DNA from: Naegleria gruberi
Lineage: Eukaryota
Assembly (NCBI GenBank): GCA_000004985.1
Contig: GG738926.1
Length of the DNA stretch: 64,000 nt
Direction: 5' to 3' (one strand)
Shown here: positions 6 to 55,913 of the stretch, piece after piece
Numbering within the stretch: the stretch's first letter is position 1
Layout of the letters: each line of letters begins with the position of its first letter
Notes under the pieces: model-generated
The model's database searches: none
What the model was told of the DNA's origin: nothing
Seen by the model: only the letters and a program-made list of their open reading frames with translations
Program-made: the position numbers and the translations under genes

Positions 6-3000
6 ATGAATAAGAAATTAAAAAATAGAATTGATTTAAAACATTTATTATTAATTAAATTAATTAAATTAATTAATAGATTAGGTGGTGAAATTCAAAT
101 TATGAAAGAATCAAATGAAAAGAAAAAAGATATGTTAAAACATATTGCTGTTTTATTACCTGCTGTTGCTACTTTAATTAAATCTATTAATAATAATAAT
201 AATAATAATTTAAATTTAAATAATAATAATAATTTAAATAATAATTTAAATTTATTTAGAATGATGTGGTTTTATATAATTATATTTAAATTTAATAATC
301 CAAATGAATTTAATGATGAAACATTTGAATCATGTCAAATTATTGGAATGAATGGTCCAATTTTATTAAATTCTAATATTCATACGTTTATGGAAATTAA
401 TAAGGAAATTGAAGTAATTTTAGATTCTAAAAATATATTACAAGAAGAAAAGACATATTTTACACAACAATTAGAATCTTATATTAATCATGGTAAAGAT
501 ATACTTGTTAATCCTTCCATTTTAAGACAATTAACAATTGAAGAAGTAATATTTTTAATTTCAATGTATAATTTAGAATTATTTAGAGCACGTTCAGGTC
601 AACCATTAAAACATTTATTAAATTATTTAGAACATTATAATATATTTACAAATATAGTAAATACAACATTACAATCATTATTAAGAAGAATATTTGAACA
701 ATGGTTATTAATTTATATTAAATCTCAACCTCAACAATCTCAATTACAATCACAATTACAATATCAACAATCACAATATCAACAATCAACANNNNNNNNN
801 NNNNNNNNNNNNNNNNNNNNNNNNNNNNNNNNNNNNNNNNNATTAGAAATACAATCTGCTTTATATCAAGGTAATGATAATGGTAAAACTACTTTTATCA
901 TTTCTGTTAAAATTAAAAAGAATTTTAATAATATGAATAATTTGAATAAGACTAGTCTATCTAGTATTGCTAATAATAATATGAATAATATGAATAATAT
1001 GAATATGAATAATAATAATAATGAAATGATTGAAGAAGAAGAATATGAAGAATATTATTTACCTGAAAATTATAGTGATAGATGTAAATTATTTGAATCA
1101 TTTAATAGATTTACATTATCATGGATTAGTAAATCAATGACAGTTGCACCTAATGTAACACAAACAGCACTTCAACATTATTTAATTAAATTCCAACAAT
1201 CAGATGTTTCATCATTAAGACATTTTGGTTATACATTTGCTGTTTATTTATCAACACCTATTGAACATTTACAAGCAGTTGGAAGTAATATTTTATTAAA
1301 AAGTGATAAGAGAGGTTTTTCAATTCTATCACAAGATCAAGTTTCATTAACTCAATCCATTTCTGTAATGTCTTTTAGTTCTGGTCAAGCTAATTCTTTA
1401 AAATTAATGTTAGGTAAACGTTCTGCTGAATCAATGATTATTAATCAATTATCTAATTTAATGAAATTATATAATAATAATAATATGAATATGAATAATA
1501 CTAGTAATAATATGAATATGAATAATACTAGTAATAATGTTAAATTTTATGAACAATTATCAGATACAATGAAATTAGCAACAGCATTTGTATTAAGTGA
1601 AAATACATTAATAATATCATTATTACAATGGATAGTATGGTTACCTGTTTATATATTTACAAAAGAATCAATGGATATTGCTATTTATTGTTGGAATTGG
1701 ATTGCATCTGTTAAATCTAATGATTTTAATATTCCATTATTATCTGAAATTTCAAATGCATGGCAATTTACTATTCAAAAAGGATATGGTTTATTTAGTG
1801 GTCATCATGAAAAAGATGAAGCTGTTGAATTAGCTGTTCAATCTAATAATCAATCTAATACTACTACTAATACTAGTACTAATAATAATACTACTAATAA
1901 TAATACTAGTAATAATCAAACCAATCAATTCAATCAAACCAATCAAACATTTAATAATGTATCAGAATTTAAAGTATATTTAAATTCTAATTCTAATAAT
2001 ATAGAAAATAAGAAAGATACCTATCCACATCGTATTTGGATCAATTATTTATCAGAGAGATATCAAAGTGGTGGATTATTAAATGAAGCTATTGTTGATA
2101 TTTATTTAAAAATGTTATTAAGATCAGTTGAAAATATTAATAGATTAAGTAAATCACATTCATCATTAGGTACAAGATTTAGATTATCAAATTTATCATT
2201 ACAAGTATCTAGAAGTGTAATTGATTTACAATTTTATGATTATATTCCAAATGCAACTATATTACAACATCGTACATTTGCTGCTTTATTAAATTGGTTT
2301 ACATTACATCCAACTTGGTATAATCCAGGTTCTAATCATATTGTACAAGATGATTTGAAAGTATTAGCAGATGTTAAAAAGAGAATTAAAAGAGAACAAT
2401 CTGAATTGAATCGTTATCAATCTATTAATATTAATGATTCTCAAATTGGTTTAACAAATAATACTTCATCTAATGCAATTTTAGATTCAGATAATATTAG
2501 TATTAGTGGTATGAGTGTTAGAACTAGTTCACGTTCTGTTGGTTTTTCTATTAAAGCCATTTCATCAAGTCAATTATTATCTTCTACTAATACTGATAAT
2601 CAAGATTTTGATACAAGTATTTCACTTCATCCTCATACTACTGGTACTACTAATACTACTGGAGCTAGTACTACTACGTGGTGGTGGTGGTGGTGGTGGT
2701 GGCAGTGCTACTAATGGTACTACTACTAATAATTCTAATAATACTTCTAATAATAATAATAGAACAAGTAGATCTGATACACGTACAATTGTCTATTCAA
2801 CATCAGGAGTAGATGCAATATTAGATGTATTATTATTATTAATATCACATGAATATGATAGAATGATAATTTGGAATGAACCACAAAAATTAATATTAAC
2901 AGAAGATTATACAAAAATATCTTTAAATAAGTGGAAGATATTTATATCAACAGCATGGAGTTTTTCACCTAAATTAGCAATTAAAATGCATGTTAGATTT

Positions 3001-4965
3001 CCATTTGATATTATTAGAGATGAATTAGAAAAATTAGTTAAAAAATATCCACTTGATTCTATTCATATACCAGAAGCAACAGAATATTTAATTAATGAAT
3101 TAAATTGTAAAATGAATAGTAATGAATTGAATCATTTATTAATATGGTCAACATGTACATTATCAATGTCATTAAGATATTTAAACAAACCATTTATATC
3201 AAATTTAAATGTACAACAATATGCTATTAGAACATTACGTAAATTTTCACCTGAAGCTATTGTTTTTTATTTACCACAAATTGTACAATGTCTGAGACAT
3301 GATTATAATCATTTATTGAAAAGATTTATTATTTCTATTGTTAAAAATTCAGTCATGTTTACACATCAATTAATTTGGACTTTAAGAACTGAAATTGTTG
3401 AATCTAATCATTTAACATTAGAAGAATTACAAGAAATTAAATTACAAGAATTTGAATTGAGTGATATTTTAAAACCATTCTATATTGATGTTATTAAAGC
3501 ATTTGATTCTAATCAAATTAGATTATATAAAGAGGAATTTCACTTTTTTGATAAAATTACTAAAATATCAGGTTTATTAGTACCTGTTGAAAAAGATAAA
3601 AGACAAGAACGTTTAATTGAATATATGAAAGATATTAAACCATCATTTAATTTATACACTCCTACCAATACTCAATTCAGTATTACTGGTATGGATTATT
3701 TAGCTTCTAAAACTTTAAAATCTGCTAAAAAAGTTCCAATTTTAATTCCATTCTATGTTAAACAGAGACCATTAGGTTTTGATATTGGTGAGGATGTTAA
3801 TATGAATCAAAATAATATGAATGGTAATATGAATAATATGAATGGTAATATGAATGGTAATAATATGAATAATACTACTCAAAATAATCAAAATAATATA
3901 AAATTACCATGTATATTTAAAGCAGGAGATGATTGTAGACATGATCAATTAGCATTACAAATAATATCCATGTTTCAAAGAGTTTATGAAAGAATTGAAT
4001 TACCACTCTATTTATTCCCATATAGAGTAATTACAACAGGTAGAGGATTAGGTATTATTGAATGTGTACCTAATAGTAAATCTAGACATCAAATTGGTGA
4101 TTCTATTAATGCAGGTGATAATTTATATAATTATTTTATTAGAAAGTATGGTAATGTACATACTGTTGAATTCCAAAGAGCTAGAATGAATTTTATACAT
4201 TCAATGGCTGCTTATTCAATTGTATCATTTATTCTATCTATAAAAGATAGACATAATGGTAATATCATGTTAGATGAAGATGGACATGTTATTCATATTG
4301 ATTTTGGTTTTATATTTGATATATTGCCGGGTGGTAAATTTGGTATTGAACAAGTTGTACCTTTCAAATTAACAACTGAAATGTTAGCTTTAATGGGTGA
4401 AGAACAAGCAATTGAAGAATCTAGAAAGAAAGATCCATCTCAATTACCAGGTAATTCATCATCATCATCTTCAAGAGGTAATAATGGTGGTATGAGTAGT
4501 GTGAGTGGTATGAGTAGTTCAATTACCAATAATACTATTGCATCAACATCTAATAATATTACTAGTACTAGTGGTGGTGGTAAATCTAAAGTATCTATTA
4601 AAGATACAAATTTAGATTCTAAATCTAATCCATCAAATGTAAATGTCAATTCAGAATTAGATTCAGATACTAATGAACATTCAGAACCCTATAATTTATT
4701 TGTTGATTTAATGATTAGAGGATATTTAGCAGCACGTGATCATATGGATTCAATTATTGCTATTAGTGAAGTGATGGTACAATCTGGATTACCATGTTTT
4801 GCTAAGGAAGATTCAATTGAACGTTTAAAACAACGTTTATGTGCTGGTAAATCAGAGAGAGAAGCTATTTTATTTATCAAACAAAAAATTAAGGCTTCCT
4901 ATCAAAATGTTTTCTCTGTCATTTATGATGTTTATCAAGAAAAAGTTGAAGGTGTTAATAGATAA
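6..4965 (+). CDS. Phosphatidylinositol 4-kinase type III alpha (Stt4/PI4KA-like). 5' end probably lies upstream of the window. Contains a 49-N gap and a +1 frame change inside the (TGG)8 run near 2680-2700.
   Basis: C-terminal PI3K/PI4K catalytic signature (KAGDDCRHDQLALQIISMFQ..., LDEDGHVIHIDFGFIFDILPGG). Long helical N-terminal region with Asn-rich inserts. ORF 6..2714 (frame 1) continues as ORF 2515..4965 (frame 2) only after the TGG repeat. Confidence 0.8.
792..840. other. Assembly gap (49 N) inside the PI4K coding region
   Basis: Run of N characters. Confidence 0.99.
2679..2702 (+). repeat. (TGG)8 trinucleotide microsatellite inside a CDS. It reads poly-Trp in frame 1 and poly-Gly in frame 2, and is the site of the frame change.
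   Basis: tggtggtggtggtggtggtggtgg seen directly. Sensible coding sequence before it is in frame 1 and after it in frame 2. Confidence 0.9.
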
Positions 4966-5056: not shown

Positions 5057-7380
5057 NNNNNNNNNNNNNNNNNNNNNNNNNNNNNNNNNNNNNNNNNNNN
5101 NNNNNNNNNNNNNNNNNNNNNNNNNNNNNNNNNNNNNNNNNNNNNNNNNNNNNNNNNNNNNNNNNNNNNNNNNNNNNNNNNNNNNNNNNNNNNNNNNNNN
5201 NNNNNNNNNNNNNNNNNNNNNNNNNNNNNNNNNNNNNNNNNNNNNNNNNNNNNNNNNNNNNNNNNNNNNNNNNNNNNNNNNNNNNNNNNNNNNNNNNNNN
5301 NNNNNNNNNNNNNNNNNNNNNNNNNNNNNNNNNNNNNNNNNNNNNNNNNNNNNNNNNNNNNNNNNNNNNNNNNNNNNNNNNNNNNNNNNNNNNNNNNNNN
5401 NNNNNNNNNNNNNNNNNNNNNNNNNNNNNNNNNNNNNNNNNNNNNNNNNNNNNNNNNNNNNNNNNNNNNNNNNNNNNNNNNNNNNNNNNNNNNNNNNNNN
5501 NNNNNNNNNNNNNNNNNNNNNNNNNNNNNNNNNNNNNNNNNNNNNNNNNNNNNNNNNNNNNNNNNNNNNNNNNNNNNNNNNNNNNNNNNNNNNNNNNNNN
5601 NNNNNNNNNNNNNNNNNNNNNNNNNNNNNNNNNNNNNNNNNNNNNNNNNNNNNNNNNNNNNNNNNNNNNNNNNNNNNNNNNNNNNNNNNNNNNNNNNNNN
5701 NNNNNNNNNNNNNNNNNNNNNNNNNNNNNNNNNNNNNNNNNNNNNNNNNNNNNNNNNNNNNNNNNNNNNNNNNNNNNNNNNNNNNNNNNNNNNNNNNNNN
5801 NNNNNNNNNNNNNNNNNNNNNNNNNNNNNNNNNNNNNNNNNNNNNNNNNNNNNNNNNNNNNNNNNNNNNNNNNNNNNNNNNNNNNNNNNNNNNNNNNNNN
5901 NNNNNNNNNNNNNNNNNNNNNNNNNNNNNNNNNNNNNNNNNNNNNNNNNNNNNNNNNNNNNNNNNNNNNNNNNNNNNNNNNNNNNNNNNNNNNNNNNNNN
6001 NNNNNNNNNNNNNNNNNNNNNNNNNNNNNNNNNNNNNNNNNNNNNNNNNNNNNNNNNNNNNNNNNNNNNNNNNNNNNNNNNNNNNNNNNNNNNNNNNNNN
6101 NNNNNNNNNNNNNNNNNNNNNNNNNNNNNNNNNNNNNNNNNNNNNNNNNNNNNNNNNNNNNNNNNNNNNNNNNNNNNNNNNNNNNNNNNNNNNNNNNNNN
6201 NNNNNNNNNNNNNNNNNNNNNNNNNNNNNNNNNNNNNNNNNNNNNNNNNNNNNNNNNNNNNNNNNNNNNNNNNNNNNNNNNNNNNNNNNNNNNNNNNNNN
6301 NNNNNNNNNNNNNNNNNNNNNNNNNNNNNNNNNNNNNNNNNNNNNNNNNNNNNNNNNNNNNNNNNNNNNNNNNNNNNNNNNNNNNNNNNNNNNNNNNNNN
6401 NNNNNNNNNNNNNNNNNNNNNNNNNNNNNNNNNNNNNNNNNNNNNNNNNNNNNNNNNNNNNNNNNNNNNNNNNNNNNNNNNNNNNNNNNNNNNNNNNNNN
6501 NNNNNNNNNNNNNNNNNNNNNNNNNNNNNNNNNNNNNNNNNNNNNNNNNNNNNNNNNNNNNNNNNNNNNNNNNNNNNNNNNNNNNNNNNNNNNNNNNNNN
6601 NNNNNNNNNNNNNNNNNNNNNNNNNNNNNNNNNNNNNNNNNNNNNNNNNNNNNNNNNNNNNNNNNNNNNNNNNNNNNNNNNNNNNNNNNNNNNNNNNNNN
6701 NNNNNNNNNNNNNNNNNNNNNNNNNNNNNNNNNNNNNNNNNNNNNNNNNNNNNNNNNNNNNNNNNNNNNNNNNNNNNNNNNNNNNNNNNNNNNNNNNNNN
6801 NNNNNNNNNNNNNNNNNNNNNNNNNNNNNNNNNNNNNNNNNNNNNNNNNNNNNNNNNNNNNNNNNNNNNNNNNNNNNNNNNNNNNNNNNNNNNNNNNNNN
6901 NNNNNNNNNNNNNNNNNNNNNNNNNNNNNNNNNNNNNNNNNNNNNNNNNNNNNNNNNNNNNNNNNNNNNNNNNNNNNNNNNNNNNNNNNNNNNNNNNNNN
7001 NNNNNNNNNNNNNNNNNNNNNNNNNNNNNNNNNNNNNNNNNNNNNNNNNNNNNNNNNNNNNNNNNNNNNNNNNNNNNNNNNNNNNNNNNNNNNNNNNNNN
7101 NNNNNNNNNNNNNNNNNNNNNNNNNNNNNNNNNNNNNNNNNNNNNNNNNNNNNNNNNNNNNNNNNNNNNNNNNNNNNNNNNNNNNNNNNNNNNNNNNNNN
7201 NNNNNNNNNNNNNNNNNNNNNNNNNNNNNNNNNNNNNNNNNNNNNNNNNNNNNNNNNNNNNNNNNNNNNNNNNNNNNNNNNNNNNNNNNNNNNNNNNNNN
7301 NNNNNNNNNNNNNNNNNNNNNNNNNNNNNNNNNNNNNNNNNNNNNNNNNNNNNNNNNNNNNNNNNNNNNNNNNNNNNNNN
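5057..7380. other. Large assembly gap (about 2.3 kb of N)
   Basis: Run of N characters. The X-filled ORFs across it are artefacts. Confidence 0.99.
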
Positions 7381-8900
7381 ACAGAACAATATGTGTCAAC
7401 ATGATTTATTAATAGACATCCGTGGAACAACCATTTTATTATGTTTTATTCATCTTCAACTTTTCATGTTGTTTTGCGACGTATCTGATGATGAAATTAT
7501 TATGTTATCACCAACAAGAGGTGTCGTCAAAAACACCTACGTTGAAGTTGTAAATCATACGGACGTTCCGAAGTTTGGTGGAAAGAGACCTAATATGATG
7601 GAGGTTCAATTTAATGTTGGTAAATTTGATGGAACATGTAGTAAATATCCCATGATTTCTACGCCATACTGATAACTTGTAATACCAGACTGTAATCGAA
7701 TTGTTTCCTGTTAACGTTACCTAAGAGCTGTAACACTACGAGCATCAGATGTAATGTATGCATGTTGCTGTCTCGTTATTATAGTCATTGGTTGTAGTCA
7801 GAAAACAATAACGTAAGTCTAAATATCAAATATAACTTACGATTTTCCGAATCATGGTACCTGTGCGATGTAAACACATCATTAGTAAAATATGTAGCTG
7901 TGTTAGAAAATGGAGCTTGTTACTGTGTATTTTATTGAAACCTGAGTTACTCTTTAGAGTTTTCTGACTTGTTCAGACATCTATATCTTTCTATGATTCT
8001 AAATACTGAGTATTAGCTCCGTGGTACACAATTGAATAATGGAAGTATTATGATGCAAAGAGCTTCCTATTCTTAGCGTAAGTACATAACAGCATGGTAG
8101 CAGTGAAAATTATAATCATAAGATCCTACTGTAAATATGAAGTACGTATTACTGTACTTCTCCTAAATGATTCAAGTTTCATAATAAATAGATGGTGTCC
8201 CTTGTAATTCCAATTCAATTCTTTACAAGTTGAAATACCTCTCTTTTTTGAAGACAGTTAGTTCCACGACAGTGATGTATACCATTACGAGTTCTCTCCT
8301 TAATGTTGGTAGAAATGACACCTTCTGCAGCAGGTTATTCAATTTCGTATAACAAGAACTCTTTATATATTCAATAAATCTGTTATGATTAGGATCTACA
8401 CTATTGCCGTGTTGGTTAAAACGCCAATCGTAAGACATTAAGGTTCCTATAGAATATGACTACGTATTTTTCATAAACTTCGCAGTTTCCTAGAGAGTAA
8501 ATACTATTACCTATCACTTTCAATCTTTCAATATTAAATTAGTATTTTAATTTTGCGTCGCAATAGTTACATTGTGAATCAAAGAGAGATCAACTATTTA
8601 TCCTATTGCTCCAGTAAATATGAAGAGTTACAAATACTGAACTTGAAAAAGTACTTGAACTTAATATCCTTATTAGATTCATTTTATCATTTATTTGGAA
8701 AGGTTGTTCATGATAAAATTTATATTGTACAAAGGTTCACCGCCCTTTTGCTACACAATATAACACATTAGATAGACTAGACTGCAAATATTGTGTGTGT
8801 GCAATAGTGTTGTGATGTTGGTGGTGATGAACCTTAATAGAGATACAATATATCTCAACAACAAACTATTACTTGAACAACAATAAAAAAAACAAACAAA

Positions 8901-9431: not shown

Positions 9432-9944
9432 ATCCAATCACTTTTATCAGTTGAAGTAATTGATATTTATTCTAAAAATATTAAATGATTACCATATGAA
9501 AATCATTTAAGTGAATGTAATTTACAAAATAATAATTTAATTAAAAAGAGGAACAGTTCAATAGATAATATTTCATATAATCAACAATTAAATTCACCTA
9601 ATCAATTTATTAAGAATAATAATTTTAATAATTTATTAAATATTAATAATAATAATAACTTTAATTTAGAAATTAATAATGAAAATTCACCTAATGAAAG
9701 TATTGATTGTCAATCAATGTTAAAAAGTGTGAATTCAAATTATTCAAATTTATCTTCATTATCAAATAATTTAATGAATCCAATTTCAATTTCTAATTTT
9801 AATTCTAATATTATTATAGAAAATATAATTAATAATTTAAACACTTTAGTTTATTAAACATATAATACAACATTCAATTAATTGAAAAAATCATCTAGGA
9901 AAATTATTAGATCTTCAATTTCATTTAGAGAATTATTAAATTAA
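9432..9944 (+). pseudogene. Decayed member of the AT-hook/'SISIKDLLN' family: one reading frame with three in-frame stops and no AT-hook
   Basis: One frame reads ...LLSVEVIDIYSKNIK*LPYENHLSECN...(Asn-rich)...TLVY*TYNTTFN*LKKSSRKIIRSSISFRELLN*. It retains the family's N-terminal (SxVE, IDIY), LPYEN and C-terminal IIRxSISxxxLLN-stop motifs. Stops at 9486, 9855 and 9879. Confidence 0.5.
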
Positions 9945-10396
9945 TTTGTAAATAGTAATTTCTATTTTGAAATTTTAATAATTCATCATGGACATTGATT
10001 TATTGTAATAATGATTGTAAATAAATAAGGTATCAATGTCCATGAATTTTATAGAAATTACAATTATTTATAAATGGAAAGTAATATTTTCAATGTTATA
10101 GATAATGACATTTCAAAGACATTTGGGAGTATCAACTTCCAAACATTATTAATGTGGTGATCATTTTCAACATTTTTATTCGAATCATGAAATAGACAAG
10201 ATGAATACCTACCATTTATGGCAAGTAAGATACTTTGTATTGCCGGCAATTGATTGAAAATGGCCCAATAGTACCATTTAATAACAATACATTCCCATTT
10301 GTGTTATCATGTTTATAAAACTTTTCATTTAAATAGGCGTTGGAGAGAAAACTCACTATATTAAAAAAACAACTCAACAAGCCTTTGAAATAGCCT

Positions 10397-11014
10397 TTGA
10401 TGATAACTTACCACAAATTCTCGTTAGTTGAATTTTCACCACCTCTTCAACAATCTAATAATGCTAATATTCCATCAATTGATATTTATCATGCAACCTC
10501 AACTAACATGAAATATTCCACCACCACCACCAAAACAATCACAACACAACAATTACCTAAAAGAAGAGGTAGACCATGTACTAGACGAATTGATCCATCT
10601 ATACCACTCATGACAATTACCAGAACTGAAATTATTTCAAATTCAATTGAACAACAACAATCAAATAATCTTGAAAAATTACTTCCCTATGAAAATCATA
10701 CAACCATTCAACCTCTGAAATCCAAAACCTTAACTAATTCCAATATTAATAAGAGAAAGAGATCTTCAAGTAATTCAACAATTACTAATAATACTTCATA
10801 TAATAACATTGATTGTATTCATCAACCATTGGAAAAGAAAAGTAAATTAATTGAAGATTATATTGAATCCAATGATGCAACATCACCACAACTTGCATTG
10901 CTATCAAAGCCAAACCATCAACAAAGGAGTAGTAGTGATATAAAGGGAGTAATTTCACCTCCAAATAGAAAAATTATTAGGACATCCATTTCAATCAAAG
11001 ACTTATTAAATTGA
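10397..11014 (+). CDS. Family member A: small low-complexity putative DNA-binding protein with AT-hook (KRRGRPCTRR) and conserved C-terminal IIRTSISIKDLLN
   Basis: MMITYHKFSLVEFSPP... N-terminus. RGRP AT-hook. MTITRTEI and LLPYENH motifs. The tail is identical in pattern to the paralogs at 12.6, 13.8 and 30.3 kb. Confidence 0.6.
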   Translation: MMITYHKFSLVEFSPPLQQSNNANIPSIDIYHATSTNMKYSTTTTKTITTQQLPKRRGRPCTRRIDPSIPLMTITRTEIISNSIEQQQSNNLEKLLPYENHTTIQPLKSKTLTNSNINKRKRSSSNSTITNNTSYNNIDCIHQPLEKKSKLIEDYIESNDATSPQLALLSKPNHQQRSSSDIKGVISPPNRKIIRTSISIKDLLN

Positions 11015-12595
11015 TAATATAGATGTGAGTCAATTATTTTCATTCTCATACAAATGAGGCCCGGGGACAAGTAAAAAATATATCGTTGGGGACAGCCCAT
11101 AATTAAAAATAACCAGGGTACAATTATCTGGTTGATAGAGTTGGTGAATTGTTGATTCAATTCTTAACTAAAACTACCAATGTTGCACCAATGAACAGAG
11201 TACATAGGATAGAGTAGTATGATACTTTTTGTTTTTTTGAATTTCCTTTAATGTTGGTGAGGAATGATAATTGTTAGTAAAAGAAAATTAGCTCTTTTAG
11301 CGTTGTTTTTACTTGAAAATTAGAAGAAATATTGATAATTAATAAAGAAAAAGTTGAAACTCAGAAGAGAATCATAACCCGTAAGCTCTTGTGCTCGTAT
11401 TGGCACTTTACATTTCGGAAGATAGTTTTAGGATTAACAAACAACCCTAAAATTACAAAGAAATCAATACGAAACTGAAATCCTGTTGTAAATCAGGAAA
11501 CCAACACAATCAGTGGTGGTATTATATCAATTTAATAACATTTTGATCGCACCCTTGTTGTATGAAGTAGTTTTTGAGAATACAAAATGATACTCAAAAA
11601 AGGCGAGCTGATTATCTCATCAACCAAAGAGAATCAACATCTAACAAATCAGAATCCTAACCCCATACAATTTTACTATAATTTTTGTGGTCTTTCTTGT
11701 AAAGTAATATTTGACTTTTCTATACCCAAATATTTTCCATCTGTCCGCAACAACATATTCTTTATTAGTCCCCAGGCCTCAATGGATATTTTGATTTGCA
11801 GGTGATTTCGGTAAATTTGTAATTGAAGCCTTAAAGACCAAGAGAAGAATCATGTATTAATAATAGGTGAATTTTAAGTCCGTTAAATTTTAAGACGTTA
11901 AACATGTAGAACATCAATAAGGGAATTATTAAATTAATAATTTTAATTATTACCATTTATAAATAAGAAATATGCCAGATGAAAATTTTAAGGATTTGGC
12001 AATTATTGAATAAAGACTTGATGTTATTTGAAAGGATTTCAAAGTTGGCTCATTCTTCAGCTAATTATCAAAAGATTGTTGTTTGATTTCTTCTTTAAAA
12101 CACAAAAAAGTTGTTTTTCCAATCATTTGTGAAGCCAATCTCCAGACGTGGCTAATAATTTATTCAAAACGAGGCCAATGAACATATTTGAATACTTTTA
12201 TACAAAGTGATGTAAGATAATCCGAGTGATAGGTATCATATCAATTAATCATTTTCGACACATGCCTAAATTGAAACTGATTACATTGATGTTTTAAAAT
12301 GGAACAATACAATCAATAGGTTCAAATGTCTATTTATCTCACATTAATGTGATTATACTTTTAGATTTGTTCTTCATGATATGTAGTTGAACAATGTCAT
12401 AAATGCCATTTAAAGGCCTTTAAAAATGTGATGTAAATGATCTCGGTGATGGAGATGAGAATCAACTTGTCAATAATAGTACCTTGTTCTATATTAATAC
12501 GTCATATTGTCTCGATTGGTCTTTACATCCCTCCCACAATTCAATGTTCTAAAGGTTTTATCAAGGTCAACAATCTAATTAAAAAAAGAAACAAA

Positions 12596-13018
12596 ATGTT
12601 CTACAACAAAATTTCAATGGTTGAATTTGCAAAGCCTTCAAATAATTCCAACTCTAAAATAACAAAGAAACAACACAATAATGTCCAAGTAAAAGTAACA
12701 CGTATTGAAACCAATGATATCAATCCACAAATATGTAAATTACAACCCTATGAAAGTCAATTCTACATTCAAAAACCAATTAAAAGAAATAAGAAACCAG
12801 ACGAAACTAGGAAACCTTCACAAATGAATAATACCACTATCATTACATCACCACCTCCACCACAATCAACACTACCAACAATATCATCAACATTATGTGA
12901 GTTAAATCATGTTGATGGTAGTGATTATCAAATGACTGTTAATAATAATCAAATAATGACTCAAGCAAAGAGACCAATTATAAGGACATCAATTTCAATA
13001 AACGAACTATTAAATTAA
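12596..13018 (+). CDS. Family member B (ORF 12437..13018; probable start at Met 12596, MFYNKISMVEFAKP). Lacks a clean RGRP but keeps the VTRIETN, LQPYES and IIRTSISINELLN motifs.
   Basis: Motif-by-motif correspondence with members A, C and D. AAAAATG start context at 12591-12598. Confidence 0.55.
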   Translation: MFYNKISMVEFAKPSNNSNSKITKKQHNNVQVKVTRIETNDINPQICKLQPYESQFYIQKPIKRNKKPDETRKPSQMNNTTIITSPPPPQSTLPTISSTLCELNHVDGSDYQMTVNNNQIMTQAKRPIIRTSISINELLN

Positions 13019-13779
13019 ATATTTTCATTAATTAGGTGAGATGTAAACTTGTTAAAATTGAGCTTTTTCAAAATAGTTCTCAATGATGAAGTCTATTTAA
13101 ACCAATTATTATTCTATTTGTTGATAAAGTGAGCTATTACAATATTGCATGGTAAATTTGTATATTTAAAGAAATTATATCAATTAAAATGGTGTTTTTT
13201 ATGGATCTATAATAGAAACATAATTTTCCAATTCCAACATGTCACTTTGTATTTAGCGATTTGATTGTCTAAATTAATCATACCTTTCAAAACAGGACAC
13301 TGTACCATTACAATACCTCAATTGTATCATACCACCTGTCATAATTATTATATATTATTTAAATGATTTTCATCCTTCACAACAGCCATATATCTCCTCT
13401 TCCATTAAGAATTTTGATAAACATGCCAATCAAATAATAAACCAAGAAAATGACAAGAGTTGAAATTCAAAATTGTTTTAAATTACTTCCTTTTGAAACA
13501 ATATTCATTGCTAAAGATTCAGCTTCATCAGAACATCAATCTGAAGAGATGACATCAAGTTGAAAGACAACCATTAAAAATCCAAAAATGAGGCTAGAGA
13601 TTTGGCCTGATCATTAATCAAGAATTAATATTTGAACTTTTTGCATCTAATAATGGATTAAGGTTTATTATGGAGATTAAAAATTCTACTTTAGTATTAT
13701 ACAGTTTTTAATAACTAGTGAGTTATATATCTCACTAAAATCACGATTACTTGAGAAATAAAAACACAATAACCACCAA

Positions 13780-14457
13780 ATGTATTATAGTAAATTATCA
13801 ATAGTTCAATTTAAAGAAGTCAAGTCTTCAAACAAGTCATCACTGCCAACCTCCATTGTTACCAAGAGAAGACGTGGAAGACCAGCAAAGAATGATCCAA
13901 AACCAATATTACCAATAGGTTATTTACAAATGATTACCTCTACAGAATCACTAGCTAGTTCTAATAGTAGTGTTGATAAAGTGGTACTACTTGATACTCC
14001 TAATCATTGTCGACAAGAGGATCTTGATTTCAAAGGCTTGTCGCAGAGTGGTAATAGTATGACCTATTTTCATAACAAGGCTTGTTGTAGCAAGGAGGAG
14101 AGTAGCAATAATAATATTAGCTTTCTAACAACACTTAATTCGAGGCTACATCCACAACCTATTTTCAATACAACATGTAATAATAATAATTGTCATCATT
14201 CACCATCATCCACTAATAATAATAATGTAAATAATTTCATCATGATGAAGAGCAATGATGATAATATTGATATTGATAATAATACAAGAAGATGTTCAAT
14301 GTTTGTAAATTATCAATGTGATGTAGATGATGAAAATAGCAACTTTTCACAAAGTAGAAGTATTCACAGTAGTGGTAACAGCAAAGTTATTTGTATTAAT
14401 ATGAGAAATAGGCGTCCATGCAGGACTTCAATATCAATAAAAGACTTGTTGAATTAA
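13780..14457 (+). CDS. Family member C: AT-hook (KRRRGRPAKNDPKP) protein ending ...RRPCRTSISIKDLLN
   Basis: MYYSKLSIVQFKEV N-terminus, RGRPAKN AT-hook, MITSTES, Asn/Ser-rich middle, conserved C-terminal tail. Lies 165 bp upstream of tRNA-Asn. Confidence 0.6.
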   Translation: MYYSKLSIVQFKEVKSSNKSSLPTSIVTKRRRGRPAKNDPKPILPIGYLQMITSTESLASSNSSVDKVVLLDTPNHCRQEDLDFKGLSQSGNSMTYFHNKACCSKEESSNNNISFLTTLNSRLHPQPIFNTTCNNNNCHHSPSSTNNNNVNNFIMMKSNDDNIDIDNNTRRCSMFVNYQCDVDDENSNFSQSRSIHSSGNSKVICINMRNRRPCRTSISIKDLLN

Positions 14458-14621: not shown

Positions 14622-14694
14622 TCCCCCTTAGCTCAGTCGGTAGAGCGTCAGACTGTTAATCTGCAGGTCGGTGGTTCGAGCCCACCAGGGGGAG
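14622..14694 (+). tRNA. tRNA-Asn (anticodon GTT)
   Basis: Cloverleaf read by hand. Acceptor TCCCCCT/AGGGGGA. D-arm GCTC-AGTCGGTA-GAGC. Anticodon loop CTGTTAA (GTT at 34-36). T-arm GGTGG-TTCGAGC-CCACC. Discriminator G. Confidence 0.85.
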
Positions 14695-14704
14695 ATCTAG
14701 AATT

Positions 14705-17700
14705 TTATTTAACAATCTTTAGGAATCTTTTGCATTGTCTTGCCATTTCCTCCTTAAATTCAAGCAATTCCTCACCTCCTCCTTCACAATTCTTCACAAC
14801 TGCCAAATAAAATCTCTTAATTCCCACATGATTATTAATAACAAATAAACTTAGTGAGTCAACTTGTTCCTCTGTTAAAAAACCTTCCTTTTCTAATTTA
14901 AATAAAATTGCCTGAATTTCAATCCATATATTCTCCTCACTATTTTCAAATGTTGATAAAGATGATCTGGATTGTTGTTGATTTTTCTGATCATTTTCCT
15001 CATCTGATAATTTGTTAACTTCTGCTGCTGATGTTGAAATATTTTGTTGTGAATATCCATCTGATAATAATATTTCATCTTCTGATCCATTTACAATTTC
15101 AAATACTTCATGTTCATTCTTTAATTCTTCTAAACTATTATTGCTACTATTGCTAGTATTGCTATTATTCTGATTCATCATAGCAATAACATCATTTTCA
15201 TCATTATTATTAATATTACTATTATTGGATGATTCTACAACTTGAGAATTATTCACAATTTGTACATTTTGATCATTATTTACATTACTACTATTATTTA
15301 CATTATTATTATCAATATTATTATCATGATTATTATTCATTGCATTAATTTTAATAGTTTCTAATTTATCATTCAATATATTTTCAACTCTTTCTTTTAA
15401 ATTATTTAACTTGTTAACAATTTGAGATGCACTTGGTCTCTTTTCAGGTTCAATTTCCACACAATCAAATAAAATTTGTAAATATTCATCTTTTCCAATT
15501 AATTTTTGAACATTTGTTACTTTTTCATTTGGTTTTAAATAATCTGAAATTTTCTTCTTATTAGTTGGAATTTTAAAATCAATTTTTAATTGACCTGAAT
15601 ATAACATGAATGCGACAATACATCCAAATGACCAAATATCAACTTTTTCACTATACGAATCTTCATTATAAATTTCAGGAGCTAAATATAACATTGTACC
15701 ACATGCTGTTCTTGCAAGTGAACTTTGAACATTTTTAGCTAATCCAAAATCACTTAATTTCATAATTGGTTTCATATCATTACTATAATTAGTATTATTA
15801 TTATTAGTATTATTTGAATTTTCAAATGTTACAAAAATATTTGATGGTTTTAAATCTCGATGTATAATATTTCTCTCATGTATATATTCCAATGCTAATG
15901 CTATTTGAATTAACCATTCAATTATTTCCAATTCATTCCAATTTCCAATTTTATTCCAATAATTAACTTTCCTAACATAGAACATGCTTAAATCACCTGA
16001 TTCACAATATGGCATTATAATATTCAATACAAGTGATACCATTTCATTATTATTATCACCACCACTATTAGTATTATTATCATGTTGTTTTTCCTGATTA
16101 ATCATCATCATTCGTTTTTCAATAAAAAATGATAAAGTAGGTAAAATGTTAACATGTTTCAATTGTTGTAGAATTAAAATTTCATTAAATACACTATCAG
16201 ATGCAACTGATTTGTTTCTACCAACATTATCATTAAATATTATATCCATCCTTTTAAGTGCATAATATTTACTTGTAGAAATATTTCCATTATTATTATT
16301 ATTATTAGAATGAATAGAATTATTATTTAATAAGGAAGAAGTTACAGATGCATTTTCATCTCTCACCAGAAATACGCATGCTTGTCCACCTCTTCCTAAT
16401 AATCTTTCAATTACATAATTTCCAACTCTTGTTTCATTTAAAAAGGAAACTTTACGCAAATCACTAATTGAATTTTCATTTAAATTAGTTTCTAATAACC
16501 ACATATCATTAGCTCTAGCAACTAATTTATCTTTATCAACAATTCCACCAAATATTAATGCTTTACCACTATTAGAAATTGGTTGAATGATAAATCCAAT
16601 ACGCGCAGGTAGTGAATTTCTTTTATCATTCATTATTTCATTATTATTATCACTCATATTACCATTTATGGTAGTATTGAAGGTATTATTAAATTTTTTC
16701 CATTGTAAAGTTTCCAAATCCAATACAAAAGTATTATTTAAATAAAGTTTTTTATAAACACCTCCTACTAGTATTAGAAATTTACCCAAAACAACACATT
16801 TATGATCACTTCTCCTTTCAGGATAATCCTCCGATGGATCTCTATCAGGTAATAAATTCTTCCATCTATAGGAATCAATATCAAATAACCATAAATCATT
16901 GGTTTGAATTCCCTTTTCTAAAACTCCACCAAATAATAGAATTTTATCTTTAACTAATCCACACCAATGATTATATCTAGGAAGTGGTATATTATTATTA
17001 TTAGAAATATTACCATTATTAGAAGTATTATTAGAAGTATTATTAATATTTTGATATTCAATTTTTTTCCATTCAAATATAAAATTCTTATAATCTAAAA
17101 TATTTAATAACCACATATCATTTCTAAATGAACCATCATATCCACCATATAATAATATTGAATTATTACTAATAGGTGTTAGAGAATGATAATATCTTGC
17201 TGTTGGTATTTTAATTCCTAAATTCATTGTAAAACCATCTTTAATCATGAAATTATGTGAATCTGTAAATGTTGGAATCCAAGTTGAGTATTGTGAATTT
17301 TTAAATAGTGAATAATATTCATTATCTTCTTGTTCAATAGTAGATGATGATGATTGTGATGATTGTGAATGAGATGAATGAGATGAATTAGATGGTTTGT
17401 AATAACCTTTTAATTTACCTTCATGCCAAGTCATAGTTTCCAAATTTAGAAACCAAACATCGTTTAATCGAATTTTTTTATCTGCAATTCCACCAAATAT
17501 TAAAATAAATTTACTTTCTGGAATTGTACACATTCCATGACGTTCTCTTGGAATTGGAAATAAATATTTTAGGCAATGTGTTGGTGATTTTACTATATTT
17601 GGAATATTTTTCTTTAATTGGTTTAATTCTTCAAATATTAAATTTGATATTTTCTTTAAAAATTCAACCATTTTAGTTTGATAATTTTTAAATATTATTT

Positions 17701-18505
17701 CCAAATTTAATTTTTTAGATTGATTTACATTTTCCATATTTGGTAATTTTCCAATTTTCTTTTTTAGAAATAATTTTAAAGAAACTTCCAAACTTTCATT
17801 AGAAAGTGAATCTTGTCTCAAAATTTGATTCATTAAATTATTTAAATAAGTATGTAAATAGGTTAATTCATCTTTTCTATTATTAGATTTTATAAAATTG
17901 GCAACATTTGTAAATTCAACAATTGCACCTGGATCTATAAAATCAAATTTTCTAATCATGTATGTTTCTAATTTTACAATAAATATTACAATATATTACA
18001 ATAAATATTATAATATATTACAATATTGTAAAATGTATTATTAAAATAACTTACTAGGAGAAAATAACCAAACATTATTAATTCTCTTAAATCCAATACT
18101 AATACCTCCCATAAATGCAATAATACTTTCATTATCATCGATGTTATTAGATGATGATATCAGACAATCTAATACACATGAAGCATGTCCTGATAATGGA
18201 GGTGGTATATCTGTTTTACTCCAATCAGTAATATCATCACTATTATTATTATTATTAACATTATTAGTAGTAGTACTTTTATTGTTGAATGATGATGATG
18301 ATGAAGAGGATGAATTTCTATTGGATGATTTTTTTGATTGTTTATTCCGATGATCATCAAATAATTTATTATTATTATTTAATGATGATGATGGTGAGGA
18401 TGATGATGAATTATTTTGATGAGTTGAAGAAGTGAATGTTTTTAAATCATTGAGAGGAATGGATTGGAAGGAAATGGAAAGTGTGGAAAGTGTTTTATTT
18501 TCCAT
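14705..18505 (-). CDS. Kelch-repeat Ser/Thr protein kinase: N-terminal kelch beta-propeller, C-terminal kinase domain, long Asn/Ser-rich tail. Two ORFs (18505..18041 and 17959..14705) joined by a short AT-rich intron around 17960-18040.
   Basis: Repeated kelch signatures (LFGGxx...NDLWLFDxxxxxW, FGG motifs) in the N-terminal half. Kinase motifs YVIERLLGRGGQACVFL (Gly loop), HRDLKPSNIF, DFGLAK, APE, DIWSFGCIV. GTAAGT donor at the end of the upstream ORF. Confidence 0.75.
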
Positions 18506-26551: not shown

Positions 26552-29500
26552 TTATATTTGTTTCATTTCAACATTTGTAGCTGGCATTACATTTCCATTA
26601 CTCAAATTCTTATGTGAATATTTTCCTGATAATATTTTCACCACAATTGCAATAATAATGATCAGTAATAATAATAAGGGAATTAAGGAAAGAAATGCTA
26701 AATAAGCTAAATTATTAGAAGGTGTTGGTTCTGAAAGTGTTGTTTGTCTATCAACAAGGACATTTAATTTAGCTTCTTTCCACATTATAGGTTGCATTAA
26801 CATGACATTTGACTTGTCGTCATAAACAATCATTTTGGCAATTGCTTGAGTTTCATCTCCAAAACTCATTTCATGATAAATTATTCTATTCTGCACTGAT
26901 ATAGATCTATATAATTCCAAACTTTGATAATATGAAATTTTGATATAGCTCATCACATTCTTACTTGATTGGGGATGTGTGAAATAATTTTCTGGGAAAA
27001 GAGCTTCCAATCGAACAGTTTCTCTCAGTTTAGCAGACGAAACATTCCATCTCAGTATTATTTCATCACTGTTAAAACCTTTAAATTGACATTGTTGACC
27101 TACAAACGTTGGTTGACAAGAACAAGTTCCATTCAATTGACAATTTCCATTTCCTGAACAAACTTTTGAATCTGAAAATGAAATATTGTAACATGAATAT
27201 GGAATTGAACAATCTAGACCTGAATACATGACATTTGAACATTGACATTTGTTGTAATCGACACATATTCCATTTTGGGAACAAACAGCATTATCTGTTG
27301 CATTCAATCCAAAACAAATTGGAATTCTACATTCAGGACCTGTGTACATTGTGTCATTGAAGCATTTACATGTATCCACATCAATACATTTGCCATGTCC
27401 ACCACCACAAACATATGGATCATCACTGGACATATCAAAACAAACAATCTTTTCACAATTCACACCACTATATCCATGTTGACATTCACACATATCAAAA
27501 TCATAACATTGTCCATGTCCAGAACAAACACTTGAATTGGTTGAACTAATTCCAAAACAGGAAGGTGATTTTGGAAGTGCCAACTTTCTAAGATACATAT
27601 TATCTGCAATGAATAAATCACCATCTGCATTAATGGTCATAGTTTCAGGTCCTATCAATGTCGTATCTGTACCCAATTGATAATTCATTGTTGGATTGGA
27701 ACTTTGTCCATTTCCTGCTATGGTAATAATACTTCCATTGAGAAGAACTTTGAAAATTCTATAATTGTCTCTATCAGAAATGAAGATTTCTCCTTCATCA
27801 TTAACAACTACACTTGTAGGACTAATCAGATTCAAATAATATTGAGTAAACACATTTTCCGACTAAACTTACCTTTTAAGGGAAGCATCAATGGCCAAAA
27901 TTCCATCTTGAAAATCATCCAAAATCTCATTGGAAAATCTTGTTGGTTGTGGAGCAGGAGGTGAATAGATACCATTTCCTGCAACTGTTGTAATGGTACT
28001 ATCATTTGCTGAAATCTTTCTAATTCTTCCATTTCCAGTATCTTTTTCATATTCGAAACTTTGAACAGTTCAACAACTTACCTGCAATGTAAATATCACC
28101 AGTTGATCGATGATAAAATCCACCAGCTGGATTAGCCAACTTGGCATATTCTGGTAAACCATTATCACCACCATATCCAATTGAAGTTCCACAAAAATCT
28201 GAAATTATTCCACTTTGTAAATCAACTTTTCTAATTTTGGATGAACCACTCTCAACTATATAAATCATATTTGAATAATCACCAAAAACTTGAACTGGTC
28301 GATTTAACATGGCACTTGTTGCTGGTCCACCATTTCCTGAATTTCCCAAACGTGAAATGCCAGCAAATAATATTTGTTGACCTGTTGTCACATCCATTTT
28401 GTAAACATTATTGTAAAACACAACTGCATAATAAATATTACCAGAATCGTCAACAAATAACCCACGCGGAACATTAACCATCAAATTTCCACCAATATAA
28501 TCAATAAATTTCGTATACAATTGACGATCCCCAATTGAGTAATAAATCTTTCTTAATAATCCACCTTGCACATCACCAATATAAATATCCTGATGATTAT
28601 TAATCTTGGCTGATTTGGAATTTATAAATGGAAATATGTATTGACCATATGTGGCATCGATAGCTCTAATTCCATCACCTGATGAAAAAGAATGACCATT
28701 ACCAACATAGGTATCAATTATTTGAGTTGGAATGTTGATTCTTCTTACTCTCAATTGACCAGTATCTAAACAAATTAGTTTCGTATAACAAAATTCTATT
28801 AGAAATAAAGACATACCTCCAATATAGATAAATTGATCATCTTTCGAAATGTAAACATCTTGAGGAAGCATAAAAGAACTTGTCAATGCATTCATGTTAT
28901 CTCCATTGTAACCTTGTTGTCCATTTCCCGCCACAAATCTCAAATAACCATCTTTATCAATTTTCTTTACTTTTTCGTTTGAACTTTCCACCCAGAAAAC
29001 TTCGCCTTGTGAGTTTAGTTTAACTCTTCTTGGTGTGAAAAGTTTGGCAGTTGAAGCTAGGACATTTTGATCATCACCAAGTTTACCACTGATACCTGCT
29101 AGTGTTGAAATTATTCCATTAGAATCTATCTTTCTAATGAGATAACTATTTGTATCTGAAATAATATTCGAAATGTTGTGAATTTAAAAACTAACCTGCA
29201 ATGTAAACTTCATTCTTCTTCTCATCGACATAAACTCCCTGAGGCATTGCTAAGAAGATTTGAGTTGCCAAATTACCAGTGTTAACCAGTTTACCATTTC
29301 CAGCAATTGTGTAAATTTTCCCATTCGAAACTTTCTTAATCTTTGCATTTAAAGTATCACAAATGTAAATCTCTTCCTGTTGATTTACATAGATACTATC
29401 TGGTGTATTCAAGACAGCTCCAAGTGCAGAATCTCCATCCATAGAATCACCTACATTCGAATAAAATTAACATTCGTCCGTATATTTCTCTCAACAACTT

Positions 29501-29971
29501 ACCATTACCACTCTCACTTCCAGCAACTGTTTCCAAACTTCCATCATTCAACACCTTAACAACATAATTCTTCATTACAAAGTAAACAATTGGTGGTAAG
29601 TAAATACTCTTCTCTAAAACAAATATATGATTTGGTTCGTAGGGAGTTTTCATCAAGGTTGAAACGATTCCAATCTTGGAAACCTTTCGAATTCTTTTGG
29701 AGGTGTATTCAGCAATGTACATGGTACCATCAGATGTAACATGAATTCCACTTGGACTATTAACACATGTAGTATTACCATAATAACCATCTCCACAATT
29801 ATCTGTTCCACTAATTGTTGTTAGCATGTAATTATTATCACTACCATTGGACAATGAAATTAACATGGTTGCAATAACCAACAATAGAGATAATATGACA
29901 ATGATTGGCCATGATAATTTTCTTCTTCTTCTTGTTGAATAACAAGCATTTCGGATAAAAGAAACACTCAT
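26552..29971 (-). CDS. Multi-exon type-I membrane protein: signal peptide, NHL-repeat beta-propeller, EGF-like Cys repeats, C-terminal TM anchor. Introns at 29452..29503, 29156..29195 and 27822..27872; the junction near 28047-28076 is unresolved.
   Basis: N-terminal LSWPIIVILSLLLVIATMLISL signal. Repeated NHL signatures (IYIADxxNxRIRKVxxNGxIxTxAGNG). EGF-like CSGHGQCYDFDMCECQHGYSGVNCE repeats. TM segment LAFLSLIPLLLLLIIIIAIVV. GTAAGT/GTTAGT...AG introns of 40-52 nt restore continuous NHL repeats. Confidence 0.65.
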
Positions 29972-30275: not shown

Positions 30276-31040
30276 TCAATTGAGTAATTCTTTTATTGAG
30301 ATTGAGGTACGAATTATTCTCCTTGTTGTTGGACTATTGGTTGAAAGAGTGTTGCTATGCATTACAAGAGTGGATGTTGTTGGTATTGATAATGTTTCAA
30401 TAAAATCTTGTGTAGTATTAGATACACAATTTGATGAAGTGGATGAGATTGGTGAATGACTTGATTGTCTCTTATTTACATATTTTGGGGTGGAATATTT
30501 TGAATGATGAGAAGGTGAAATGTTCTCAGCATTGAACAATGAATTAAGTGAGCTAGAGGAAGAACATGATAATGATGGTGAATTACAATGGGAAGGAGCA
30601 ACAATATTTGAATTGTTTAAAAGTACAGGAACAGCTGGAATAATATGAGTTGTGGAGCTTACTTTGGATGATAATGTAGCAGATACTACAGATGGTAAAT
30701 AGGAACAAGATAACAAGCTATTATTAGATGTAGCTTTCTTGTTCTTCTGCTTGGTAATTCCAGATGAGAGACGAATCTCACTCTCATAAGGATAACATTG
30801 AGTTTTTGCTTGTGAATAGGAAGAGTGGGAGGAAGCATTGAACATTTCAGTCTTGGTTATCATCATTTTCACAGACGAGCTGTTTGGATTCTTGGCTGGT
30901 CGTCCTCTCTTTCGTGGCATTTCAGGATTGGAAGATAAGGAAGATGATAAAGGATTGTTGTATTGTCCAACACAAGTATTGTGCTGCTTTGAAGGGGTAG
31001 CAAATTCAACGACGGAAAACTTGGTATAGCAACCAGGCAT
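30276..31040 (-). CDS. Family member D (dispersed, inverted copy): AT-hook (PRKRGRPAKNPNSS) protein ending ...TRRIIRTSISIKELLN
   Basis: MPGCYTKFSVVEFATP N-terminus, RGRPAKN, MITKTEM, CYPYESE, Ser-rich middle, conserved C-terminal tail. Same motif order as members A-C. Confidence 0.6.
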   Translation of the reverse strand: MPGCYTKFSVVEFATPSKQHNTCVGQYNNPLSSSLSSNPEMPRKRGRPAKNPNSSSVKMMITKTEMFNASSHSSYSQAKTQCYPYESEIRLSSGITKQKNKKATSNNSLLSCSYLPSVVSATLSSKVSSTTHIIPAVPVLLNNSNIVAPSHCNSPSLSCSSSSSLNSLFNAENISPSHHSKYSTPKYVNKRQSSHSPISSTSSNCVSNTTQDFIETLSIPTTSTLVMHSNTLSTNSPTTRRIIRTSISIKELLN

Positions 31041-55839: not shown

Positions 55840-55913
55840 GCCGTCATAGCTCAGTTGGATAGAGCACAGGACTTCTAATCCTGGGGTCGTGGGTTCGAGC
55901 CCCATTGTCGGTA
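55840..55913 (+). tRNA. tRNA-Arg (anticodon TCT); one T-T mismatch in the acceptor stem
   Basis: Hand-folded. Acceptor GCCGTCA/TGTCGGT. D-arm GCTC-AGTTGGATA-GAGC. Anticodon stem CAGGA/TCCTG with loop CTTCTAA. T-arm GTGGG-TTCGAGC-CCCAT. Confidence 0.75.

Follow-up and report, generated by a model that had tools for sequence, protein, structure and literature searches.

A 64,000-nucleotide stretch of the Naegleria gruberi genome (contig GG738926.1 of assembly GCA_000004985.1; hereafter "the window") contains a tandem, head-to-tail, birth-and-death array of small genes, and these belong to a previously undescribed, lineage-restricted Naegleria protein family that is held together by motifs only. 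In the nine members that we aligned, the collinear motifs are YxKFSxVEF, an RGRP AT-hook, MxITxTE, PYE, and the C-terminal R[TS]SISI[KNR][DE]LLN, and their order is strictly kept. The last of these ends every one of the nine proteins and is fixed through to their final residue; in its form ISIKDLLN, it is identical at seven of eight positions to IPIKDLLN of yeast MATalpha2. We tentatively propose, with somewhat less than even confidence, that the family consists of chromatin adaptors built of motifs only, through which a WD40 co-repressor is recruited; on the same sequence evidence, its members may be the missing partners of the Tup/Groucho-like repressors of Naegleria.

The window is AT-rich, with a guanine-plus-cytosine (GC) content of 20–35%. 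The family members and the remnants identified in it are listed below; E values refer to a hidden Markov model (HMM) of the family, and asterisks in peptides mark stop codons.

9432–9944, + strand: psi1, a decayed copy in one frame with three in-frame stops, which keeps K*LPYENH and RKIIRSSISFRELLN*
10400–11014, + strand: gene A, an intact and intronless open reading frame (ORF), 204 amino acids (aa)
11902–11937, + strand: psi2, a tail remnant, TCRTSIRELLN*, from which two codons of the family motif are deleted (E = 2.2, weak alone)
12596–13018, + strand: gene B, intact and intronless, 140 aa, identical to XP_002669443 / NAEGRDRAFT_75559
13450–13563, + strand: psi3, a possible internal remnant, MTRVEIQNCFKLLPFE..., with a mid motif followed, as in the family and without a change of frame, by a PYE-type motif
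13780–14457, + strand: gene C, intact and intronless, 225 aa, identical to P0003
30276–31040, − strand: gene D, a fourth intact member, 254 aa, NAEGRDRAFT_82132 (P0002)

Gene A carries YHKFSLVEF (10409–10435), the AT-hook KRRGRPCT (10559–10582), MTITRTE (10610–10630), LLPYE (10679–10693), and RTSISIKDLLN (10979–11011). The corresponding segments of gene B are YNKISMVEF (12602–12628), VKVTRIE (12689–12709), LQPYE (12740–12754), and RTSISINELLN (12983–13015), and those of gene C are YSKLSIVQF (13786–13812), the AT-hook RRRGRPAK (13867–13890), QMITSTE (13927–13947), and RTSISIKDLLN (14422–14454). Gene D, which is encoded on the other strand at a distance of 16 kb from the array, stands beside NHL-repeat ORFs at 28047–28991 and 29447–29971 and has YTKFSVVEF (31002–31028), RKRGRPAK (30891–30914), MMITKTE (30846–30866), CYPYE (30783–30797), and RTSISIKELLN (30279–30311). 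As for the remnants, psi1 has lost its N-terminal third, including the N-terminal motif and the AT-hook, and psi3 has lost the N- and C-terminal motifs. An earlier note on this DNA, made from the letters alone, had reported three intact genes and one decayed copy in head-to-tail order. All four elements were recovered where it had placed them, with the start of gene A moved from 10397 to 10400, and psi2, psi3, and gene D are now added to them. The motif set that it gave is as it described, except that gene B has no RGRP and gene C has no PYE.

The revised start of gene A concerns both the ORF call and the public annotation. TTG 10397 reflects the bacterial start-codon rule of the ORF tool, whereas ATG 10400 is usable in eukaryotes. 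The NCBI model of this gene (P0001, 168 aa) begins at the internal M38, which affects positions 10400–10510 of the window and leaves out the N-terminal motif YHKFSLVEF. Since every other member has this motif, which a start at M38 drops, ATG 10400 is likely to be the true start and the NCBI gene model is likely to need correcting. The ORF itself (10397–11014) matches an NCBI "predicted protein [Naegleria gruberi]" at 100% identity, and three further ORFs of the window are identical to other predicted proteins of N. gruberi. The dictyostelid source that the earlier note had implied was rejected because of this 100% identity.

Given psi2 and psi3, the array suggests that up to six copies once stood here. 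Such an array would expand and decay through tandem duplication.

A family conserved as short ordered motifs

Three further N. gruberi paralogues were found on other scaffolds, namely P0004 and P0005 (134 aa each) and P0007 (179 aa, XP_002669870). The family comprises at least seven intact N. gruberi genes and two environmental relatives, and its proteins are 134–254 aa long. P0004 and P0005 are 93% identical and lie on scaffolds of 351 kb and 43 kb, respectively, so that they represent either a very recent duplication or separately assembled haplotypes. The two environmental relatives (P0008 and P0009) come from short AT-rich eukaryotic contigs (32–34% GC) of a single ENA metagenome, ERZ929261 (PRJEB11402), where they occupy positions 61–576 of contig L001 and 150–581 of contig L002. 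The gene on L001 adjoins an intronless cyclin-dependent kinase-like gene with a PSTSIRE motif, and the source organism of both contigs is presumably a Naegleria-like heterolobosean. The paralogues and metagenome relatives outside the window have the same motifs in the same order. No synteny was detected between L001 or L002 and the window, the only matches being motif-coding DNA and a generic kinase similarity.

An exhaustive HMMER search of 1.84 billion representative proteins returned nothing beyond the N. gruberi proteins and the two ENA metagenome proteins, and word-indexed protein searches likewise gave nothing outside this set. In an alignment-based scan of the JGI metagenomes and IMG/VR, no member was found, although the tblastn confirmation used one divergent member and might miss relatives. 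R[TS]SISIxxLLN-stop, written as a degenerate pattern of 36 nt, likewise had no match. The members are annotated merely as "predicted protein." Literature searches on the gene identifiers and on project PRJEB11402 found nothing, and the statement of the earlier note that it recognised no such family from the literature agrees with our failure to find any paper that names these genes.

Twelve alignment columns are invariant in the nine members: Y, S, and F of YxKFSxVEF; E of MxITxTE; and R, S-I-S-I, and L-L-N of the tail, of which the last 15 residues of one member, TTRRIIRTSISIKELLN, serve as an example. The pairwise identity between members is 22–37% with many gaps, apart from the one pair at 93%, and the spacers between motifs range from about 15 to more than 150 residues. 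At the DNA level, motif-coding sequence is all that is repeated between copies; a C-terminal block of 51 nt was found four times at 67–82% identity, and the DNA that surrounds it is unalignable. The family HMM was applied to all stop-to-stop pieces in the six-frame translation of the window, and it recovered nothing but the four genes (E = 1e-40 to 1e-73) and the tail of psi1 (E = 2e-4). As judged from these sequences, the shared pattern is far beyond chance. The earlier claim that the family is conserved as ordered short motifs only is borne out. The family may also be fast-evolving, as the earlier note described it, a description that is based on the divergence between paralogues.

The invariant tail is written in different synonymous codons among the paralogues (R as AGG or CGT; T as ACA, ACT, or ACC; I as ATT, ATA, or ATC; and L as TTA, CTA, TTG, or CTC), which shows selective constraint on the peptide and not on the DNA. 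Moreover, intact ORFs of 140–254 codons persist in DNA of about 30% GC, in which adjacent copies gather stops. These observations bear on the explanation that the ORFs are pieces of a mobile element, or else that they have no function and were annotated spuriously in this AT-rich DNA. The occurrence of tandem copies beside decayed ones, the low-complexity, Asn/Ser-rich composition, and the bare "predicted protein" annotation are in line with it. However, domain scans detected no transposase among the array genes or their neighbours, nor other domain matches; there are no terminal repeats, and the repeated DNA is confined to the motif-coding blocks; substitutions within the invariant motifs are synonymous; the environmental relatives keep the motifs amid different neighbours; and intact and decayed copies are clearly separable. 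We consider this explanation very improbable and, as a whole, largely refuted. As for a transposon-encoded ORF in particular, neither a transposase or integrase domain nor terminal repeats nor repeated flanks were found.

In the Pfam searches, no family reached its threshold in any of the nine members. The AT_hook model (PF02178) matched three of the nine below threshold (best E = 0.01), and a PDB profile search gave no relative, only sub-threshold matches of AT-hook type (GLYR1, E = 0.14). Single hooks of 13 residues usually fall below the Pfam AT_hook threshold. By inspection, the core [KR][KR]RGRPx[KT], often with a Pro before it, occupies the same relative position in eight of the nine members. 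The AT-hook of the earlier note therefore stands as an RGRP core in these eight; gene B has none, and no member attains the Pfam threshold.

About two-thirds of the residues are polar or disorder-promoting, and the proteins are predicted to be disordered. AlphaFold2 models built with the family alignment of nine sequences had a mean predicted local distance difference test score (pLDDT) of 54 for gene A and 59 for P0004, with predicted template modelling scores (pTM) of 0.14–0.20. The sole element present in both models, each based on this nine-sequence alignment, is a helix of four to five residues on I-K-[DE]-L-L (residues 199–203 in gene A and 129–132 in P0004), where pLDDT reaches its local best of about 70–76. 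In the model of gene A only, residues 6–12 (KFSLVEF) pair with residues 73–80 (MTITRTEI) in a beta-hairpin, which was not reproduced for P0004.

This hairpin raises the alternative that the conserved segments are the strands and helix of a split mini-domain with long variable loops, which folds on itself or as a dimer, carries the AT-hook in its first loop, and binds DNA directly. The hairpin and the helix of the gene A model would be parts of such a fold, and the alternating hydrophobic patterns, which are typical of strands, and the strict motif order fit it as well. In contrast, the P0004 model has the C-terminal helix only, and the wide variation in spacer length speaks against a common fold. 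With pLDDT values of 50–76, pTM values of 0.14–0.20, and an alignment of nine sequences, the models are weak evidence either way. We regard a split domain as improbable.

The C-terminal peptide and its likeness to co-repressor-binding motifs

If the family consists of co-repressor-recruiting adaptors, the motifs would divide the work as follows. The single AT-hook ([KR][KR]RGRPxK) would tether the disordered protein loosely, and with low specificity, to AT-rich chromatin. The N-terminal YxKFSxVEF together with MxITxTE would bind another partner, possibly a sequence-specific factor. The C-terminal ISIK[DE]LLN-COOH would form a short amphipathic helix seated on the WD40 propeller of a Tup-like (or Groucho-like) co-repressor. 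Such docking would parallel that of the alpha2 peptide IPIKDLLN on Tup1 and of the engrailed homology 1 (EH1)/TN motif on Groucho/TLE, and repression would follow. We infer, for the family, that its proteins are nuclear, that they bind DNA and a co-repressor, and that they repress.

The comparison with MATalpha2 carries most detail. The N-terminus of the Saccharomyces cerevisiae protein is MNKIPIKDLLNPQ, and mutation of I4, L9, or L10 abolishes its binding to the Tup1 WD40 domain. The chance of an identity of seven in eight is about 2e-8 per comparison. All of the residues that alpha2 needs for Tup1 have invariant counterparts in the family, whose tail satisfies the alpha2-type pattern IxIxxLL in that I, I, L, and L are invariant and variation is confined to the x positions. 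The two also have in common an Ile at the first hydrophobic position and the placement of the motif at a protein terminus. In contrast, MATalpha2 is a homeodomain protein, whereas the family has no folded DNA-binding domain (no Pfam domain and no PDB relative), and the motif is all that they share. The family and alpha2 are not homologous, and the likeness of the motifs may be convergent.

The alpha2 motif has itself been treated as an EH1 motif in which Ile replaces F/Y/H (Copley, 2016; Burglin and Affolter, 2015). Compared with the EH1, TN, and octapeptide motifs of metazoan homeodomain, Fox, and T-box factors, the tail I-S-I-[KNR]-[DE]-L-L shows the same hydrophobic spacing, the small hydrophobic residues that occupy positions 3, 6, and 7 being invariant, and has a Ser at position 2; it also has the K-D and the trailing N in common with TN, and TSISIKDLLN is identical to the NK2-class TN/EH1 motif TPFSVKDILNLE at six of ten positions. 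EH1 bound to TLE1 (PDB 2CE8) is a short amphipathic helix across the propeller channel, with which the short helix tentatively predicted in the family tail would be compatible. The differences are the aromatic first residue of EH1 factors as opposed to the Ile of the family, and the absence from the family of a sequence-specific DNA-binding domain. The EH1 resemblance that the earlier note had pointed out proved better than expected, in that the tail matches one particular variant, that of alpha2, much more closely than it matches the EH1 consensus. The N-terminal segment F-S-[ILMV]-V-[EQ]-F (10415–10435, 12608–12628, 13792–13812, and 31002–31022) was also compared with FSIxxIL; it has F-S-I and the hydrophobic residue at +5 in common with it and is without the final Leu. 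This segment might serve as another co-repressor handle, of the Phe type, unless the two sequences are unrelated.

Other systems resemble the family in part. Ripply/Bowline is the nearest functional analogue, being likewise small and built of two or more short conserved motifs, of which WRPW recruits Groucho/TLE and FPIQ binds T-box factors; in contrast to the family, however, Ripply has WRPW and no AT-hook, is restricted to animals, and bears no sequence relation to it. HMGA and other AT-hook proteins share with the family an R-G-R-P core with flanking Lys/Arg in a disordered protein, but HMGA has three hooks and an acidic C-terminal tail, whereas the family has one hook and ends in ISIKDLLN. 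Plant EAR-motif adaptors bridge transcription factors to TOPLESS and follow the same recruitment logic, with a short amphipathic repression motif that recruits a co-repressor of the Gro/Tup1/TPL type; their motif is LxLxL, their receptor domain on TOPLESS is a different one, and they have no homology to the family. In view of the Pfam and PDB searches and the single hook, the family does not belong with alpha2, with the homeodomain proteins, or with HMGA. That it works like alpha2 or EH1 is a reasoned hypothesis, and membership in either class is not claimed. No precedent for an AT-hook combined with an EH1 motif was found in the literature.

Several points weigh against the adaptor proposal. 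The strict EH1 definition fails, as the first position is Ile and not F/Y/H in nine of nine members. Stripped to its hydrophobic skeleton, the motif is common, for the six-frame translation of the window matches it 116 times, so that weight can be placed only on the near-identity to alpha2 and on the family-wide invariance; the argument consequently hangs on one short peptide identity, which could reflect convergence for another reason. The motif is C-terminal in the family and N-terminal in alpha2. On the DNA-binding side, gene B dispenses with the AT-hook altogether; the hook of gene C, the best of the window genes, scores 10.3 bits against a Pfam gathering threshold of 17.4; and one AT-hook alone gives weak DNA binding. 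The searches gave no relative in the other annotated species of Naegleria, where short ORFs are possibly unannotated. Finally, the proposal is made from sequence motifs and literature.

Other roles have been assigned to the alpha2 peptide: the first 13 residues of alpha2 have been classed as an atypical nuclear localisation signal (NLS), and the same peptide overlaps the Deg1 degron. Both weigh against our proposal, and the former favours an alternative in which the proteins are motif-only nuclear proteins whose tail is a targeting or turnover signal (a C-degron, an NLS or nuclear export signal, or a kinase-regulated docking site), the likeness to alpha2 reflecting another role or convergence. 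A motif at the very C-terminus in nine of nine members is what would be expected if the free carboxylate were read, and the invariant R-[TS]-S-I-S in its basic context (RRIIRTSIS) looks phosphorylatable. However, the conserved residues are those whose mutation breaks alpha2–Tup1 binding, and the tail also resembles the TN/EH1 motifs of metazoans, for which no role as degron or NLS is known. Groucho-binding WRPW/WRPY motifs are, moreover, likewise typically C-terminal, and -LLN is not known as a class of C-degron. We consider a targeting or turnover signal to be a serious but somewhat unlikely explanation of the tail, and co-repressor recruitment is the reading that we retain, with the reserve stated above.

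Other features of the window

The neighbouring genes are ordinary ones and encode a phosphatidylinositol 4-kinase (PI4-kinase), a Kelch-kinase, leucine-rich repeat and NHL-repeat proteins, an inositol trisphosphate (IP3)-receptor-like protein, a PAS-cyclase, and a RabGAP. The PI4-kinase extends over two overlapping + strand ORFs, 6–2714 (PI4K_N region) and 2515–4965 (PIK accessory and catalytic domains), and its split is probably due to an intron or a frame change. It abuts an assembly gap, a run of N at 5058–7381, which produces spurious "ORFs" of 790–870 aa in six frames and an apparent dip to 10–15% GC. A tRNA-Asn(GTT) gene at 14622–14694 lies 165 bp downstream of gene C and ahead of the convergent Kelch-kinase gene (14705–17959, − strand), and a tRNA-Arg(TCT) gene is located at 55840–55913. 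An ORF of 2777 aa at 34332–42665 (+ strand) with Ins145_P3_rec, MIR, RIH, and RIH_assoc domains marks the gene for the IP3-receptor-like channel.

Co-repressors in Naegleria

According to a previous survey, the N. gruberi genome codes for a Tup-like protein with Tup_N, and also for a WD40 protein at the base of the Groucho clade that is without TLE_N and has a Leu at one of the two pocket-defining positions (Copley, 2016). The heterolobosean Groucho-like protein thus differs from the metazoan partners of EH1 in this altered pocket residue. The same study found no EH1 or WRPW motif in the N. gruberi proteins with transcription-factor domains, proposed that Tup-type pockets may accept EH1-like motifs that are without the first Phe, and argued that both types of co-repressor may reach back to the eukaryotic common ancestor (Copley, 2016). 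Because this screen was limited to known transcription-factor domains, it would miss the present family. No EH1/WRPW partner having been found in Naegleria, the family offers a candidate, one that can be tested cheaply, for the same mode of recruitment outside animals and fungi.

In its strongest form, our proposal is that the tail is a genuine Tup/Groucho motif in a heterolobosean, the first outside opisthokonts, and that its bearers are an expanding set of disordered AT-hook adaptors instead of classical transcription factors; we hold this to be possible but rather doubtful. It is more speculative still that the N-terminal motif, as a second handle, lets each protein engage both a Groucho-like and a Tup-like propeller. 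If the proposal is true, the peptide-in-propeller code would date to near the last eukaryotic common ancestor, or it would have been re-invented almost residue for residue. If the tail does not bind a co-repressor, the family would still be a clean example of linear-motif-only conservation. If it does bind, motif scans that are limited to known transcription-factor domains would overlook lineage-specific adaptors such as these.

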